A DNA stretch of 64,000 nt from NCBI GenBank assembly GCA_019358935.1, contig JAHHIK010000006.1, positions 71,597 to 135,596 on the forward strand, in the 5' to 3' direction. Under the pieces are notes generated by a model. The model searched no databases and had not been told where the DNA came from. It was given only the letters and a program-made list of their open reading frames with translations. Numbering within the stretch: the stretch's first letter is position 1; each line of letters starts with the position of its first letter. Position numbers and translations under genes: made by a program. Shown in pieces: positions 26,139 to 35,100 of this stretch. The stretch comes from Tolypothrix carrinoi HA7290-LM1. Its GTDB lineage: Bacteria; Cyanobacteriota; Cyanobacteriia; Cyanobacteriales; Nostocaceae.

Positions 26139-26518
26139 TAATTTATCTCTCAAGAAAAATTAATCTCACAGAAACCGGGTTTGTTTGAGAATCGCAATCA
26201 TCAACCCGGTTTTTGCATTATTCAGATTATTTTTTTGAGCGCTTCAATATTTCATCTATTTAAATATATGTAAATATATTTTGTGTTAACTACAATTTTG
26301 TTGTATGTGTTTTCGCAAAATCGCGTCTAATTAATAGTCAGTGCGATTATTTGTAATCCTGAAAGCTTTGAATAACAAGCATTTGAGTAATTTGGAAAAT
26401 ATAAATCTCTGATTAGTGCATAATCTGAATTTGCGATGCCTATTAAGTATAAGAAGGGAAACAAAAAACTCAACCTTCTACATCAACGATTTCTTTACTA
26501 CCAAATAGAGTGTAAATT

Positions 26519-26773
26519 ATGGCTACCAACCAACCGAATGCTAACTATTGCGAATGCGAATTCACAATTCCCATCAAGTTGAATGTTCCCATTACCATCA
26601 GTCCCCAAGTTTACATAACTTCAGTACCTTCTATCAAGCAGAGATTACCTATTTTCCTTGAACCAGACTTGTTACTGTCACCAGAAGTTCGAGCAAATGC
26701 ACCTGTGTGTTATCCCCAAAATGACTGCGAACCCAAGCAGTTACCCGCTCAACAAACATTGCCTTCAGCGTAA
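26519..26773 (+). CDS. Small Cys-flanked repeat protein, copy 1 (84 aa)
   Basis: Paralog of the next two ORFs; CECEFTIPIKLNVPI...PVCYPQNDC. Confidence 0.85.
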   Translation: MATNQPNANYCECEFTIPIKLNVPITISPQVYITSVPSIKQRLPIFLEPDLLLSPEVRANAPVCYPQNDCEPKQLPAQQTLPSA

Positions 26774-26930
26774 TTTATGCATAAGTTCCTAGCGTTTTTA
26801 AACGCAGAGTGACGCAGAGTAAGCGCAAAGTAACGCAGAGTTTTCTGAATTTAATTCGTTACTTTATTTGTGCAATCTTGTACTTAGATAGTCAACTCAA
26901 ACAACTTGTAAATCAACAGGAGTCCAATTT

Positions 26931-27146
26931 ATGGCTACTTATCAACCGAATAATAACAACTGCGAATGTGAATTCACAGTTCCCATCAAACTGAATGTTC
27001 CGATTACCATCAATCCCCAAGTTTACGTAACTTCAGTACCTTCTGTTAAGCAGAGATTACCTATTTTCCTAGAACCAGATTTGTTACTTGAACCAGAAGT
27101 TCGGGCAAATTCACCTGTGTGTTACCCCCAAAATGGCTGCAATTAA
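26931..27146 (+). CDS. Small Cys-flanked repeat protein, copy 2 (71 aa, shortened tail)
   Basis: AGGAG RBS; paralog; core differences include many synonymous changes. Confidence 0.85.
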   Translation: MATYQPNNNNCECEFTVPIKLNVPITINPQVYVTSVPSVKQRLPIFLEPDLLLEPEVRANSPVCYPQNGCN

Positions 27147-27231
27147 CAACACTTACAATCAAAGAAATCTTGCCATCAGCAAGCGAAAATAGTCAACTCA
27201 AACAACTTGTAAATGAACAGGAATGCAACTT

Positions 27232-27498
27232 ATGGCTACCAACCAACCCAATTCCGCTAACTATTGCGAATGCGAATTCACAATTCCCATCAAATTGAAT
27301 GTTCCCATCACTATTAGTCCACAAGTTTATGTAACTCCAGTGGCTTCTATTAAGCAGAGATTACCTATTTTCCTAGAACCAGATTTGTTACTGTCACCAG
27401 AAGTTCGGGCAAAGGCACCCGTATGTTATCCTCAAAATGAATGTGAACCAAAACAGTTAGCTGCACAAGATGTACTACAATCAGCAGAGATGAGTTAG
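27232..27498 (+). CDS. Small Cys-flanked repeat protein, copy 3 (88 aa)
   Basis: MATNQPN start matches copy 1; about 45-bp upstream region duplicated with copy 2. Confidence 0.85.
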   Translation: MATNQPNSANYCECEFTIPIKLNVPITISPQVYVTPVASIKQRLPIFLEPDLLLSPEVRAKAPVCYPQNECEPKQLAAQDVLQSAEMS

Positions 27499-27536
27499 TC
27501 ATTTGATTGCTAATTGTTTGTTATGGGAAACATTAT

Positions 27537-27559
27537 CACCACCCTTTTTCAGGGTGGTG
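27537..27559 (+). terminator. Stem-loop after the three small genes
   Basis: caccaccct-ttttc-agggtggtg, perfect 9-bp stem. Confidence 0.6.
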
Positions 27560-27631
27560 TACCTCGTTTTGGATAGCTTTTTTGTTGATTGTACAAATTC
27601 AAATATAAAACTCTAGAATTTGTTAAAACTT

Positions 27632-28144
27632 ATGTCTGCTTTAAATGAACCTAACTCACGTTTAGAAGGTAACAAGCTTCATATCTCTTTAATGTTAAAA
27701 GTGCCTATTGACATTGAAGTAGAATTAGGAATCTCACCCAAAAATTACCAAAAAAAGCAAGATTTAGTTAGCCAGACAGAAGATTTTAAGTCTGCGGTGG
27801 TAATGAGTAAGCTGAATCAAGTTGAGTTTGAAGAACAAATTCGGGTTTTATCTAATCAAATAGTGACTCAACTTTTTCAAGAAGGTGAAGTATTTTCTAC
27901 CCTTCCAGAAACTCAAATTCTGGAGAATTTACCAGAGCAAATCAGTACATCTATACCAGATTCTTCGACTGGAGATATCTTATTATCAGAAAAAGATAAT
28001 GTATATATCGAAGAAGTTACGCAAATACCAGAAAGACAAAAGAGACGCTTTGTTGACTCGTTAAATGATGGTTTAACTTTAGCTGTTAACGCAGTCGGTA
28101 CAGCTTTGTTTTTGGGTAAACTTGCTAACTATAGCTGGGAGTAA
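27632..28144 (+). CDS. Hypothetical protein; N-terminus resembles the small repeat proteins, acidic linker, hydrophobic C-terminus
   Basis: MSALNEPNS...LHISLMLKVPIDIEV versus MATNQPNS...FTIPIKLNVPITISP; C-terminal GLTLAVNAVGTALFLGKLA. Confidence 0.65.
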   Translation: MSALNEPNSRLEGNKLHISLMLKVPIDIEVELGISPKNYQKKQDLVSQTEDFKSAVVMSKLNQVEFEEQIRVLSNQIVTQLFQEGEVFSTLPETQILENLPEQISTSIPDSSTGDILLSEKDNVYIEEVTQIPERQKRRFVDSLNDGLTLAVNAVGTALFLGKLANYSWE

Positions 28145-28362
28145 TGCAACGTCTAACCCCAGAACTGCTTCGCAACAAGATATGTAACGCCTTCCATCTT
28201 AACCCAGAAATGATCAATTTATCTCAGGAAGAGGCGAAGGCACTGCAAAATTATCTCTATGCTAATTACCTCATCATCCAGTGCAAAGAAGCAGCAGTGA
28301 AGGTGTCATCCAAAACCTGGTCAGCAATTGAGGAGCGCATGTTATTAGTTTGGAATGATTGA
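28144..28362 (+). CDS. Hypothetical protein (72 aa), translationally coupled
   Basis: TAATG stop/start overlap with the upstream gene. Confidence 0.6.
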   Translation: MQRLTPELLRNKICNAFHLNPEMINLSQEEAKALQNYLYANYLIIQCKEAAVKVSSKTWSAIEERMLLVWND

Positions 28363-28423
28363 AATCTTGAACCTTTCACCCAGTGTACCGGAAAAGAAAG
28401 TTCCTAAACCGAATCCGGAATTT

Positions 28424-30241
28424 TCAAATCCTGGAGTGGCTCAAGAACTCCTTTTGATTAGTAAGCACTGAGTTAATAACATAAAGTCTAAAGAAAAGGG
28501 AGCGATAACCAGGATGTTTTGAATTCCACATTTTCCTAATCTGCTTTGATTGGAAAATATCAATAGACATAATAGGACTGTCGCTTCCCAAAAACGCTTC
28601 TACTCTCTCCTCAAACTCGCTAGTGAACCAAATCTCTGAAGGAGTCGGAAATCCACACTTGCGACGCATGGCTATCTGATCGGGAACCACTCCTTGCAGT
28701 GCTTTCTTCCAAATCCACTTTTCAACGCCATCTTTCACCTTGAGCATTGGGTTGAAATTAAAAGCTGAACAGGTAACACGAGTATCAGCAAATGGACTTC
28801 GGACTTCTACACTATGAGCCATACTTGTAATATCCATCTGGCGGTATTCATAAGCGCTACATCGACCATGATAATTCATTAGTTGAATTAACTGAATGAC
28901 GTTATCGACACTATCCCGATAAGGCACTAAGATATCTTCGTATTTTTGAATTAAATAATCCGCTATGTCTACATTAGATAAAACCCGATCAATTTTAACA
29001 TTATAAAGCCATTTTAATTGGTAATAGTAATATTCTTTTGTACAATTTAATGAACTACATCCTTCTAGTTGAGAAATAGCTAATCCCTGCTTGTAACCAT
29101 CGAAAATTTCATCAGGACCACTGCCACAAAAGATGACTTTGCATTCAGGCTGAATCACTTCAAAGAGTTTTACAAGGCATGGACTATCTGGAGCAGCCAT
29201 AGGTAATCCGCTAATCCGAATCCATTTGTCAAGACATCGCAAATACTCGGAACTGTTAATGGAAATTTCCCGATGAGTGGTTCGGTAGAGTTTGGCAGCG
29301 TATCGAGAATACTCAAACTCATCGAAGGTACTTGTCAAGCCCGGTAAATGTTGACCTATGAGCTTTTCAAAACCAATCGAGTAAGTCTTCAGGTCAATTC
29401 CTGCTCGATATGCTTGGGCAAGAATGGCAGTCGAATCTATGCCACCACTAAGAACAAGACCGACAGGAACTTCAAAGTTAAACATATCACAACATGCGTC
29501 ATGAACAACTTGTCTAATCTCTTGTGAAATATCCTCCACGTTAGTTCTTTGCTGATTGCCGATGGGAATTTTGTAATAAGCCTTCTTGGTAATTCTATCG
29601 GGAGAGATTTTGAGGTAGTACCCTGGCTGTAGCTGCTTAATTTCTTGAATATGAGTATCTTCACCAATAATAAAGCGATGTGCTACTACCTCAGCGATCG
29701 CCTGATAATTCAAGCTTTTGCAATAGCGACGATTCCAAATTATCGGATTAATCTCTGAGGAAAAAATGATAACATCACGCTCAATGAGGTAAAACAGAGG
29801 CTTTTGTCCAGCCGGATCTACCGCTAAGAAGAATGTATTATCTCTGCGATCATAAATACAAAAGGCAAACATTCCTTCAAAATGCTCTAAGCAGGCTGTC
29901 CCCCACTTTTCATAAGCTGCTAGGATTACTTCAGAATCAGAACCCGTTGTAAACTTTTGGTTGTTAAGCTTGGCTTTTAACTGCTCAAAATTATAAATCT
30001 CGCCATTGAAGACAAGCAGGAGTCCATTTTTGTCCTTTCGCATCGGCATATCTGCTTGCCGATTTGTTGCATCTGTAATAGCTAGTCTACAGCAACCCAA
30101 GATACCATTTCTTCCAGCTCTAGCTATACCTTCGGAATCCGGTTCGCGATGTCGAAGATCAACTAACATTTGTTCGACTTCACTTAGTTCATCTTCACCT
30201 AGAATCTTTGAGAAGTTAATAACACCTGTAAAACCACACAT
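28424..30241 (-). CDS. asnB: Asparagine synthetase (glutamine-hydrolysing)-family amidotransferase
   Basis: N-terminal MCG nucleophile, FNGEIYN, SDSEV, GMFAF, LSGGIDS, GSGPDEIFDGY, EVRSPF. Confidence 0.88.
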   Translation of the reverse strand: MCGFTGVINFSKILGEDELSEVEQMLVDLRHREPDSEGIARAGRNGILGCCRLAITDATNRQADMPMRKDKNGLLLVFNGEIYNFEQLKAKLNNQKFTTGSDSEVILAAYEKWGTACLEHFEGMFAFCIYDRRDNTFFLAVDPAGQKPLFYLIERDVIIFSSEINPIIWNRRYCKSLNYQAIAEVVAHRFIIGEDTHIQEIKQLQPGYYLKISPDRITKKAYYKIPIGNQQRTNVEDISQEIRQVVHDACCDMFNFEVPVGLVLSGGIDSTAILAQAYRAGIDLKTYSIGFEKLIGQHLPGLTSTFDEFEYSRYAAKLYRTTHREISINSSEYLRCLDKWIRISGLPMAAPDSPCLVKLFEVIQPECKVIFCGSGPDEIFDGYKQGLAISQLEGCSSLNCTKEYYYYQLKWLYNVKIDRVLSNVDIADYLIQKYEDILVPYRDSVDNVIQLIQLMNYHGRCSAYEYRQMDITSMAHSVEVRSPFADTRVTCSAFNFNPMLKVKDGVEKWIWKKALQGVVPDQIAMRRKCGFPTPSEIWFTSEFEERVEAFLGSDSPIMSIDIFQSKQIRKMWNSKHPGYRSLFFRLYVINSVLTNQKEFLSHSRI

Positions 30242-30286
30242 TTTTTTAATGATTTACTTTTGGGACTTTCTGAAGCACGACATTGA

Positions 30287-31030
30287 CTAACTGCTCAAAG
30301 AGATAAAACTTCCAAAAGCTGAACCTCTTTCTTCGTCCGAAGTTCTTCGCCTAGCTGAAAAGAAAATATCTTTACTACATGACGTGCAAAAATTAATATT
30401 TTCAATGTGATGTTCTAGAATTCCATTATTAATTAGCTCCTGGTAAACAATAAATTTTAAGTTTAAGAAATATTTATCGTCTCTTGTTTCTAAGTATTGC
30501 ATCTAATCTAAATTTTGCAAAAATCCAAACATATCTTCTTTGACTTCATAACAACAAACATTAATAAACGGAGCAATTCCAATAAGTATGTCTGACATAT
30601 TAGAATTAAAAACTTGATGAAAATGTTTTAGACAATTATTAATTATTCCTTGAGAAAGACCTTTGTAACCTGCATGAACAGCCCCTACAACTCTATTTTT
30701 TGGATCAAATAAAAGCAGAGGAACACAATCAGACGAATAAATAGCTAAAATATGATTGCTCACATTACTAATCAAAGCATCAACCCCAAGTTTAATAGAA
30801 CCTTCATCACCCTGCTTACAGACATGAACATCTTTTCCATGTACTTGTTCAGCAAAAATGATCCGATTTAGAACTTGAGCTTCTTGTTGAGGAATTTGTA
30901 AACCTTCAGCAATTCTTGAAATAAAATTATAAGCAGTAAAAGGATTTATCGACTGTGTTTTTTTAGTAGAAATAATATTGAAAATTTGATACTCATCAAA
31001 ATGAGAGAAAGAAAATTTATTTTTTAACAT
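30287..31030 (-). pseudogene. pgeF: PgeF/YfiH (laccase-domain, purine nucleoside phosphorylase-like) gene split by one in-frame TAG
   Basis: EQVHG, DAL, SDCVPLLL, AVHAG, CYEV in the 5' part; CT, FFSARR in the 3' part; TAG at 30503-30505 in the same frame. Confidence 0.8.
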
Positions 31031-31436
31031 TCACAACTCCAAATTTCTTTTTTGCCCAATATAATAAGTATTTCAATTGAATAAAATCAAGTTTTATGTC
31101 CTGACAATGAAATACTTTTAATCCCAATCATGTATAGATATGGATTTAACTTTGTTCATACAGCAGTCTAATCTATTTTTTGCATAATCTTTCTATTTTC
31201 TCATCTGTATAATAAAAATGCAACGACAGATAACTGGAGTTTAGACTAAAGACGAGCGATCGTGAGCAAAGCTTACCTAACTTACAGAGATAAAACTTAA
31301 ATATTTAGTAGCAACTTATACAAATATTCTCATAGTGAAAGTAAGCCAGGAAAAAAAGAGAGAAAAACGAGCAACCATGAGTGATGGTTTACGCACTCGC
31401 GGAGCGGATCTTGAAACAAAACCGTCCCTTATAGTC

Positions 31437-31611
31437 AAAACTATTAATATTAGATATATAGCAATCCTATATGAGTTGTGAGAATCGAGCATACAAGATC
31501 CCCGACTTCTTGGAGAAGTCGGGGATCTTGTTTCTCACGAATGATTTAGGAATGCTATATATTAACCCATAGTGAGTATGTATGTATGATGAAGAAAAAT
31601 GGAAAAAATGA
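31437..31611 (+). pseudogene. higB: HigB toxin C-terminal remnant
   Basis: Removing the MITE and 8 nt of a (TATG)3 expansion gives KTINIRYILTHSEYDEEKWKK*, matching the HigB C-terminal LTHxEYD motif; lies upstream of higA. Confidence 0.65.
31455..31561. mobile_element. MITE-like element with terminal inverted repeats and an internal perfect 18-bp hairpin
   Basis: tatatagcaatcctatatgagttgtgaga / tctcacgaatgatttaggaatgctatata; acaagatccccgacttct-tgg-agaagtcggggatcttgt. Confidence 0.8.
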
Positions 31612-32190: not shown

Positions 32191-35100
32191 CTACTCGACT
32201 CGTTGTAATTGCGCTACTCTGGGGTCGATTATTTTTTGACCGAGAGTGGTGAATTTAATTGCTACAGATATTTTATTACCTGAGCCGAAAACATGAGTGA
32301 TTTGACCGATGCCAAAACTTTTATGCAAGACACGATCGCCTACTTGCCAATTTTGTATGTTCTGTTGTTTTCCAGGTGACACAGAAGCATTTACAGAGGG
32401 ACTTTTGGTGAAACTTTGTTTAATCTCATGAGCGCTGGTGAGTAATTCTTCTGGTAATTCGTTGAGAAACTGCGATCGCACTGCTGGTTCTCGATTTCCA
32501 TAAAGACGACGTTCGCGAGCATGTGATAAATATAACCGCTCTTGTGCGCGAGTAATACCCACATAACACAAACGACGTTCTTCTTCTAAAGCTGTTGGAT
32601 TATCTAAAGAACGATAGTTAGGAAATAATCCTTGTTCTAACCCTACCAAAAAGACAACCGGAAACTCTAATCCTTTAGAAGAATGTAAAGTCATCAGAGA
32701 AACCGCTTTTTGTCCTTCTTTTAAGTTATCCAAATCCGAACTGAGAGAAGTACTTTCCAAAAAAGCACCTAAAGAAACATCTTCGTTTTCTTCTTCAAAT
32801 TGCAGCACTGCGTTATAAAGTTCTTTGACGTTTAGCAAGCGGTTGTCAGCTTCTTCTGTACCTTGATTTTGCAAATCTTGAACGTAACCAGAAGCTTCTA
32901 GCAATTTTTCTACAATCTCGGAAACGGGAACTGTGCTGACTTGTTCTTGCAACTTGCGAATCATTTGGGCAAAGTTATTTACAGCTTTCGCTGAACGTCC
33001 AGCTAATGTATTAACTGATGTATCGTCGATAAGTATTTCCCACAATGTTGTCCCTAATTGTTGAGCCGCGTTAGTCAAAGCGTCTATGGTGGCTTTACCA
33101 ATACCGCGTCGAGGAGTGTTAATAACTCGTAACAAACTTAGAGTATCCGATGGGTTTGCGATCGCCTTTAAATAACTTAATACATCTTTAATTTCTTTGC
33201 GATCGTAAAATTTCAATCCTCCGACAATTGTATAAGGTATTCCCGCTCGCACTAAAGCTTCTTCAAAAGGACGAGATTGAGCATTGGTGCGATAAAGTAT
33301 GGCAAAGTTACCCCAATTAACTTCGGGATTTTGCCTTTCTAAAGTGCGAATTTGATTAATTACAAATGCGGCTTCCGCGATTTCATCATCTGCTTTGTGA
33401 CAATAAATTTGTTCACCGACTCCCCGCGTCGGTTTGAGAATTTTATCAATTCGTTGGGTGTTATTTTCTATTAGTTGGTTCGCAGCTTCAAGAATATTTT
33501 CGCACGAACGATAATTTTCTTCTAATTTTACCATTGTGCGGGTATCTTCATCTGGCAAATTATCACCAAAGTCTTGCTGAAACTCTAATAAGATGGTAAA
33601 ATCAGCCATTCTAAAAGAGTAAATGGAGTTATGTACTAGAACTCCGTTGGCAACGTAGGTATGAGCAATGTCCACTTCTAAATCGTAAACTGCGCCTTCA
33701 TACTCTTGTTGAAACACTTCTTCTATTTCATGCTCTTCTAATTGTCCATCCACATCCACCAAGACTTTCATCCCTGAGTGTAAGTGAGAAAGAGGCATAA
33801 AATCATAAGTGACACCTTTTACCAATGCTCGGCGGCGAATTTCTAAAGCCTCGGCTTCAGCTATTTTATGAGCCATAGCAAGAGCTTCTTTGTAGGAAAT
33901 GGCAGTTTCTAGTCGATAACCTTGATGATTTTTACCGGAACGAATTGAGAAACCAGCCGCTTGCAAATTGCTAGCAATGTCACTACGATTAGAACACCAC
34001 TGTAAGCGATGATAGCTAGCAGACCTCTGACTCTCAAGCCTGGGTGTACCAAACATTACCAAATTTAGTGTCTGTCTTCTGTCACCATTTTGTGGACGAT
34101 AATGGGGAAATTCTGGATGCAACCACAAATCCTGCATCAAGCAATGAGCATTAGTGATGGTATCAATTTCTTGGAACAAACGAAAAAACCATTCATCACT
34201 CATGCGTAATTTACGACCATCACTATGAAAAACTATAGTTGGTAGACCATATTTAGCTGCATAGTAGGCTTCATAGTACCAAGCTTCTTCATAAGAAGAA
34301 GTTGTTTTAAGTACCCAGAGTTTGTCAGCATGTTCTTGTGTCGCTCGGATTCTAAAGCCCAAATCCTCTTTGCCATAATCGTTACTACGCAAACTTTTGG
34401 TCATTCCTACGCGATAACCTCTGTCCGCCCTGTACATTAAGTAAACATAGTAACGCCCAGCTTGTGGAACCATCCTCGCGAGGACAATGTGATGAGGAGT
34501 ACCTTTAAGTAAGTGTTTCCCTGCACGAACACACCAAAGAGAACCAGAAAAGTATCCCTTTTTGATGTGAGTAACTGTGCTTGGATAAAGTTGATGTTGA
34601 CCACTGGGTGCTAAAACTTGATCTCCTACCTTCAAAGTCTCAATTGGTACAGAACCTTCGCAAGTATTGATTTCAGTTCCTGGTGGAAGGCACTGATCTG
34701 CATCACCGACAACAAAAACCGAGCGATCGCCCCAATCCCATTCACTCTTATTATTTTCACCGTTCGTTACCAACAAGCGAATCAGGTCGTACTGAGTGCG
34801 GTTAGTATCTTGATATTCATCTACAAGGATATGGCGGAATTTCCGATGCCAATAACCTAATACTTGTTCGTTTTGCTGAAACAGTTTGACAGGAATTAAA
34901 ATCAAATCATCAAAATCAAGAGCGTTATTTTGTGCTAGCCTATCTTGATAGCAACTATAAACTTCCGCAACGACTCGTCCCCAATATTTAGGGTTCTCTG
35001 TTTCAAATTCTTGAGGTGATAAACCTTGATTTTTCGCGTTACTGATAGCGTAACGCACCGAACGCGGTTCAAATTTCTTATCATCTAAATTTAATTGCTT

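Follow-up and report, generated by a model that had tools for sequence, protein, structure and literature searches.

A cassette of small two-unit, two-cysteine proteins and a unit-bearing partner in Tolypothrix carrinoi, a candidate beta-strand polymer system of cyanobacteria

The chaplins of Streptomyces (ChpA-H, PF03777) comprise short, strand-rich paralogs with two cysteines, together with longer, C-terminally anchored members carrying the same domain. The long chaplins are thought to tether the fibres via their C-terminal anchor, according to the part of PMC5618241 drawn on here. In Bacillus, the endospore appendages (S-ENA, F-ENA) are described in a portion of bioRxiv 10.1101/2020.08.21.260141 as beta-augmented polymers locked by disulfides between subunits, and an excerpt of 10.1101/2025.02.11.637640 reports dedicated anchor proteins for ENA appendages. 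The bacterial amyloid signalling sequences (BASS), which resemble fungal HET-s motifs, have a length of about 25 residues and occur doubled in one partner and singly in the other in filamentous bacteria (10.1101/2020.01.06.895854, in part). Neighbourhoods of EACC2-caspases with an ECF sigma factor and DUF1822 were described computationally (Kaur et al. 2021, PMC8195603, excerpt). Finally, the cyanobacterial tubular (CT) pilus of Microcystis is an antiparallel beta-sheet polymer (PMC12397347, excerpt).

Here, we analyzed a locus of Tolypothrix carrinoi which, like the chaplins, combines short two-cysteine paralogs with a longer protein bearing the same element and which, like the BASS pairs, holds a motif of similar length twice in one partner and once in the other. 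It lies in a stretch of 64,000 nucleotides (i.e. the window, to which all positions refer) and has the following features:

26416-26447, forward strand: conserved promoter-like box (GCATAA, 13-14 nt, TATTA-like element) about 100 nt before A, with a putative promoter function
26519-26773, forward strand: small subunit A, 84 aa; core at 26555-26710, made of unit 1 (26555-26632) and unit 2 (26633-26710)
26931-27146, forward strand: small subunit B, 71 aa; core at 26967-27122; AGGAG ribosome site
27232-27498, forward strand: small subunit C, 88 aa; core at 27271-27426
27537-27559, forward strand: stem-loop between the array and D, a 9-bp hairpin (z = -2.4)
27632-28144, forward strand: partner D, 170 aa, with a Cys-free unit at about 27671-27748, a predicted helix (aa 60-86), an acidic variable linker, a basic patch and a C-terminal helix ending NYSWE (28046-28144)
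28144-28362, forward strand: 72-aa ORF, a fragment of a NACHT C-terminal helical domain at the edge of an insertion, outside the cassette

The positions that a preliminary description had given for the four cassette genes were confirmed, and A, B, and C are indeed paralogs with a near-invariant core. They share 85-89% pairwise identity and originated by tandem duplication of about 230 nt. Pairwise dN/dS values over the 52-codon core were between 0.08 and 0.22 (0.062/0.28, 0.035/0.45, and 0.081/0.40 for the three pairs), and the three genes are thus under purifying selection. For gene C, an alternative in-frame ATG at 27223 would give a protein of 91 aa. A second copy of the cassette, with two small genes and D, was detected on contig C109 of the same genome, with a relaxase gene nearby. 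Genome-wide, the profile of the unit matched five small proteins and two D proteins, and nothing else.

The 72-aa ORF had been described as coupled to D. Its start does overlap the stop of D by one base, but it is not a member of the cassette. It matches the NACHT C-terminal helical domain PF22727 (E = 2.6e-14), and it shares 74% identity (residues 15-72) with the end of an open frame of 868 codons on contig C128. The first 14 codons belong to a flank common to relatives, and the rest is located inside an insertion of about 3.4 kb (28190-31550) that is missing in all seven close relatives aligned. Besides the NACHT fragment, the insertion contains a gene of the asparagine synthetase family and a laccase-like gene that is broken up into two ORFs. 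The asparagine synthetase family gene was rejected as a cassette partner, as it is convergent and lies within this strain-specific insertion. Further along the window, an in-frame insertion of about 1.07 kb (33627-34694, reverse strand) in a UvrD/PcrA helicase gene is likewise not found in close relatives; it shows a sub-threshold match to intein splicing domains (E = 1.3e-6) and is a probable intein.

Pfam searches with A-D at E ≤ 1 returned no family, and 15 one-unit members of the small-protein family (see below) gave chance-level Pfam matches only, as did PHROGs. No matches were obtained from NCBIfam (including its RiPP precursor families), from PDB sequences at E ≤ 10, or from Rfam. Fold searches (Foldseek PDB, viral and VIA wide) were also without match, which is weak evidence as the query was an unfolded model. 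One ESM Atlas query retrieved three unnamed cyanobacterial clusters, and a second search gave no usable match; viral contigs yielded 0 of 88 candidate stretches. Searches of open-access papers brought up nothing relevant on the family or its genomic setting, on the box, or on six locus tags. That no known family could be assigned, as stated in the preliminary description, therefore holds: the cassette and its small-protein family are real and previously undescribed.

The small proteins are built from a simple element. In 109 of 113 proteins checked, the two end cysteines enclose 50 residues without indels, and this Cys-to-Cys core consists of exactly two 26-residue units. A subfamily of shorter proteins (51-78 aa) carries a single 26-residue Cys-to-Cys unit; such one-unit relatives are also present in other lineages. 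This subfamily, like the upstream box, had gone unnoticed in the preliminary description. Comparison of the one-unit profile with that of the long form showed a gap of exactly 26 residues (hhalign P = 99.5%), and the one-unit profile scored best on the long form at offsets 0 and 26. The long form is therefore two units in register, and its self-match at offset 26 (permutation p = 0.003) agrees with the internal two-fold repeat noted before, whose period is exactly 26 residues. Hydrophobic residues alternate strictly along the whole core, occupying its odd positions (mean Kyte-Doolittle value +2.2 at odd and -1.6 at even positions). The composition comprises 15% Pro, with a period of about 6, and 0.4% Gly. 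The 6-residue periodicity fits a triple-stranded beta-helix fibre; the near-absence of Gly, which such fibres are expected to contain, fits poorly, and the viral fold search gave no match.

Only the end cysteines, Cys13 and Cys64, are near-invariant in the family. The CxC and CxxxxxC motifs, which had been taken to bracket the core, proved to be local features (46 and 26 of 129 long cores, respectively). Exactly two cysteines occur in 96 of 128 unique cores, and no conserved His was found in the cores, so that a multi-Cys metal motif is not conserved. A hydrophobic 8-mer ahead of the first cysteine was found in just three of 171 family members, in agreement with the reported lack of a signal peptide. 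The tails are short, with Tyr, Asn, Gln, and Pro as abundant residues. Conservation is found in the middle of the protein and variability at its ends, which favours a structural role over a leader with a variable core, as had been argued. The word LEPD, which we presume to resemble a caspase site, was rejected as such, being absent from unit 1 and from the one-unit forms.

An AlphaFold2 model of the monomer (109 sequences) reached a pLDDT of 72 and a pTM of 0.18 and contained no DSSP structure; the monomer is thus predicted to be an extended chain without a fold of its own. Covariation in the core (mutual information) was shallow (Neff 55), too little to fix contacts. The two-unit core also occurs with other C-terminal extensions, namely a strongly hydrophobic helix (P0223 and P0226, Kyte-Doolittle 2.8) or a long polar stretch (P0233); in P0117, half a small protein is joined to the body of D. 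From these fusions, it follows that the unit works as a portable module.

The same unit opens D. Its N-terminus matches one unit without cysteines (P = 92.9%, E = 3.7e-7; E = 1.9e-5 against a profile from small proteins only), which bears out the earlier remark that D starts with a strand similar to those of the small proteins. The acidic linker is present as well and varies between 59 and 160 residues across the family. Less of the supposed hydrophobic end remains: the best 19-residue Kyte-Doolittle mean of the C-terminal segment is 1.44, which is marginal and not clearly hydrophobic, and a value of 1.6 is reached by only eight of 92 D proteins. This segment was found in 92 of 97 proteins examined, is terminal in 83, and bears near-invariant Arg, Asp, Asn, Gly, Lys, and Trp residues, of which Asn, Gly, Lys, and Trp belong to the hydrophobic end itself. 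An Arg precedes the tail in 92% of 92 sequences. The structure model of D was poor (pLDDT 47), with the C-terminal segment modelled as a helix at low confidence. As the segment is amphipathic and marginally hydrophobic, it could equally well be an interfacial membrane helix or a motif for protein binding as a membrane span. Short ORFs resembling the C-terminal motif of D only were noted in genomes without a small gene (L070:3203-3412 and L071:5337-5546); these are probably remnants.

The hairpin reported between the small genes and D was found again, with a 9-bp stem. Upstream regions of D contained a hairpin beating all 10 shuffles in 33 of 42 cases, compared with 19 of 57 control regions, and 5 of 8 stem pairs showed a compensatory change among 12 hand-picked sequences. 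The stem-loop is likely a partial terminator or an mRNA-stability element. Ribosome-site words were present ahead of 45 of 57 small genes that come first in their array and of 71 of 78 that lie further inside, compared with only eight of 42 D genes; these and the hairpin counts refer to unique sequences, close kin included. Together, the strong ribosome sites of the small genes as opposed to the weak one of D, the hairpin, and arrays of up to six copies point to many small subunits being made per D. In two soil metatranscriptomes, themselves identified by means of this stretch, contigs from relatives, mostly with 90-99% similarity, cover the three small genes and, for one of the runs, part of D; as contigs, they indicate neither level nor strand, and a 20-kb control stretch was also covered in places.

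The cassette, which occurs in filamentous cyanobacteria, is accessory. A genome scan detected 31 loci, with titles naming Tolypothrix, Hassallia, Scytonema, Rivularia, Calothrix, Mastigocoleus, Nostoc, Lyngbya, and Caldora. Profile searches yielded 117 small proteins and 98 D proteins, and the one-unit profile gave 70 matches. Among 1.84 billion proteins, 34 representatives matched, two of them spurious (P0228 and P0240, unrelated repeat proteins that were left out of all counts). Every named source was cyanobacterial. In a sample of the phylum, the cassette occurred in four of 401 genomes, including that of T. carrinoi. Within the taxonomic family, 68 of 389 genomes had the small gene and 64 had D, when 9-14 candidates per genome were scored; both were present in 57 genomes, compared with 11 expected by chance, although related genomes are not independent. 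The preliminary description had considered a role in akinetes. Lyngbya, Symploca, and Caldora are not known to form akinetes, and since the family is present in records of these genera, such a role is doubtful.

Arrays of one to six small genes are nearly always followed by D. A D-like gene was found in 27 of 33 loci and was the only neighbour common to more than seven of them. Of five genomes searched for D, four yielded none: three are drafts of the Lyngbya/Caldora type, and the fourth has a truncated small gene. D has stayed intact in two near-complete genomes from one genus in which the array was recently deleted. The pair is therefore not obligate.

Several other arrangements were noted. 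In L001 (10038-13307), L029, and L030, a plasmid-like copy of the cassette faces a gene for a GH64 beta-1,3-glucanase. L021 and L022 have an extra copy of the small gene with its own box on the opposite strand, converging on D. In L020 (1899-6910), the cassette lies between a DUF1822 gene and a gene for a contractile tail sheath, all on the same strand. In L007, L008, L009, and L011, it is located just past a large serine recombinase gene next to a gene for nitrogenase component 1, which suggests that it is carried there on what we take to be a nif-interrupting excision element.

The box upstream of gene A scored 19.6 bits on a matrix of 31 sites, from which the own-genome site and two off-pattern rows had been left out. 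A box was found ahead of 35 of 57 small genes that are first in their array. It precedes both genes where the small gene and D diverge and, in a Calothrix array, was duplicated along with every gene; the plasmid-like second copy had none within 250 nt. In the genome of T. carrinoi, 51 sites reached 15 bits and 26 of them 18 bits or more (e.g. C24:1002, C6:110349, C73:26231, C144:10859, and C161:5883 and 6141), whereas 2 Mb of shuffled sequence contained no site of 15 bits. Many Nostocales genomes showed a strong over-representation relative to a reversed control. For a 14-nt pattern of the box, the median copy number was 14 among 36 genomes that have the small gene and 4 among 37 that lack it; this pattern was tuned on the own genome, and the genome groups were hand-chosen and are confounded by kinship and size.

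Twenty regions behind the box were scanned (31 proteins). They encode (i) two ECF-type sigma factors; (ii) NB-ARC and caspase-nSTAND1 proteins; (iii) DUF928, astacin, CAP, and GH17 proteins; and (iv) two operons combining a gene of 476-520 aa without Pfam match with a DUF1822 gene. Cupin, DUF3598, and hypothetical proteins were also found, and several genes behind the box seem to have no link to defence. In six fetched loci, some of which represent the same place in one genome, the cassette is flanked by DUF1822 genes. The box marks a candidate alternative-sigma regulon, and the cassette is probably tied to a regulon of stress or defence.

On the basis of sequence patterns and structure models, we lean, with modest confidence, towards the small proteins forming a beta-strand polymer for which D would be a minor membrane tether. 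A major subunit with a minor anchor, as proposed before, fits the copy amplification, the covarying hairpin, the asymmetry of ribosome sites, the unit in D, and the independent fusions of the core to transmembrane helices; polymerisation itself we infer. A single transcript would start at a promoter for an alternative sigma factor, which caspase/STAND, sigma-DUF1822, and glucanase genes would have in common with the cassette. The signal-less two-unit proteins would then pair strands between chains, giving a fibre or sheet with the hydrophobic faces buried between the chains. Its topology could be that of a ribbon with two or three strands, a triple helix, or a sheet. The cytoplasm disfavours disulfides, and the two end cysteines would probably lock the polymer end to end by inter-chain disulfides (or a metal site) once the cell oxidises or breaks. 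D, with its one Cys-free unit, would join as a rarer cap or seed and tie the polymer to the membrane via its conserved C-terminal helix. Synthesised in the cytoplasm when the cell is stressed or attacked, the polymer would reinforce or plug the cell, or coat the filament after lysis. A proline content of 15% is unusual for cross-beta amyloid, and such a polymer could therefore not be a classic amyloid.

In a bolder version, which we put forward only tentatively, the cassette may encode a new class of beta-strand polymer that is inducible, lacks a signal peptide, is locked by disulfides, and is neither amyloid nor pilus. Its genes would be controlled by a caspase-gated sigma factor; pinned to a membrane by D, it would plug or armour damaged cells or trigger the helix of D to sacrifice the cell. 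If true, an inducible polymer pinned by D would be a bacterial counterpart of fungal wound plugs.

A different use of the shared unit appears unlikely. Here, the small proteins would nucleate D via that unit, and the C-terminal helices of D, possibly released by cleavage after the conserved Arg139, would cluster into a membrane-damaging assembly similar to HET-s and BASS. Two units in one protein and one in its partner do parallel the BASS/HRAM pairs as presented in the part of Dyrka et al. (bioRxiv 10.1101/2020.01.06.895854) considered here. Moreover, the invariant polar residues of the D tail exceed the needs of a plain anchor, an Arg precedes this tail in most sequences, the box is also found ahead of caspase-STAND and NB-ARC genes, and orthocaspases cleave after basic residues (excerpt of PMC6426788). 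However, an NLR or Bell-domain neighbour was found in none of 33 loci, no other protein of the own genome carries the unit, and the composition is Pro-rich and practically Gly-free. One genome keeps D under its box without small genes, and amplification to six copies is more than a trigger needs.

It is still less probable that the small proteins are soluble strand peptides whose binding neutralises either D or a regulon protease, with no polymer being formed. The excess of small protein over D suggested by the expression signals, the extended monomer model, and co-regulation with proteases (e.g. astacin and caspase-like genes) would suit such an inhibitor, but D occurs alone in two genomes and the small genes alone in three, and the exact doubling of the unit and the membrane-helix fusions are better suited to modular assembly.

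Very improbable, too, is a role as RiPP precursors whose modifying enzymes lie elsewhere in the regulon. RiPP precursors had been raised as an option in the preliminary description; short tandem paralogs without signal peptide, tails rich in Tyr, Asn, and Gln, and the asparagine-synthetase-family gene 62 nt past the 72-aa ORF could be taken in favour of this idea. It is unsupported, as no modifying enzyme or transporter is conserved near 33 loci and the asparagine synthetase gene, as described above, is convergent and strain-specific; a double Gly was found in 3 of 171 members only, conservation spans the whole core, and NCBIfam precursor families did not match. Metal binding or storage is hardly tenable, since, despite the two invariant cysteines and the CxC and CxxxxxC of the own-strain copies, most cores have two cysteines only, CxC is a minority feature, and no His is conserved. 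Two known types did not fit: a metallothionein-like protein, as many conserved Cys/His are lacking, and the gas vesicle protein GvpA, as no Pfam or NCBIfam match and no conserved neighbour but D was found.

If the polymer with its D tether is right, the cassette would represent an undescribed self-assembling protein with a minimal building block of 26 residues. Nature has varied this block, with one or two units, with or without cysteines, and with different tails; this should make the fold readily accessible to structure determination and engineering. The cassette would also provide a concrete structural output for the putative caspase/sigma/DUF1822 signalling circuits of mat- and crust-forming cyanobacteria, as well as a handle on the response of filaments to damage.

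Returning to the described systems, the cassette shares with the chaplins the short paralogs and a long form bearing the same domain, with D as the presumed anchor. Yet A-D gave no match to PF03777, and whereas chaplins are secreted and sortase-anchored, the cassette proteins have neither signal peptide nor sortase motif, D ending in NYSWE. They further differ by 15% Pro and almost no Gly, and by an anchor form with one unit and a short form with two. ENA subunits are folded jellyroll or head-neck proteins, in contrast to the cassette subunit, which lacks a monomer fold and has no sequence or fold match in PDB (a weak result for an unfolded query). Unlike BASS, the cassette has no NLR or Bell-domain gene, is Pro-rich, and has multi-copy stand-alone motif genes. 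CT pili are extracellular and glycosylated, and the cassette proteins matched no PDB sequence or fold. With the EACC2-caspase systems, there is an overlap in the genome of T. carrinoi, where the box of the cassette precedes DUF1822 operons, an ECF sigma factor, and caspase-STAND genes; the part of Kaur et al. (2021, PMC8195603) covered here mentions neither the cassette nor a promoter. Since their defining features failed in each test, the cassette belongs to none of chaplins, ENA, and BASS. Most likely, it is a new realisation of the theme of a beta polymer with a major subunit and an anchor.
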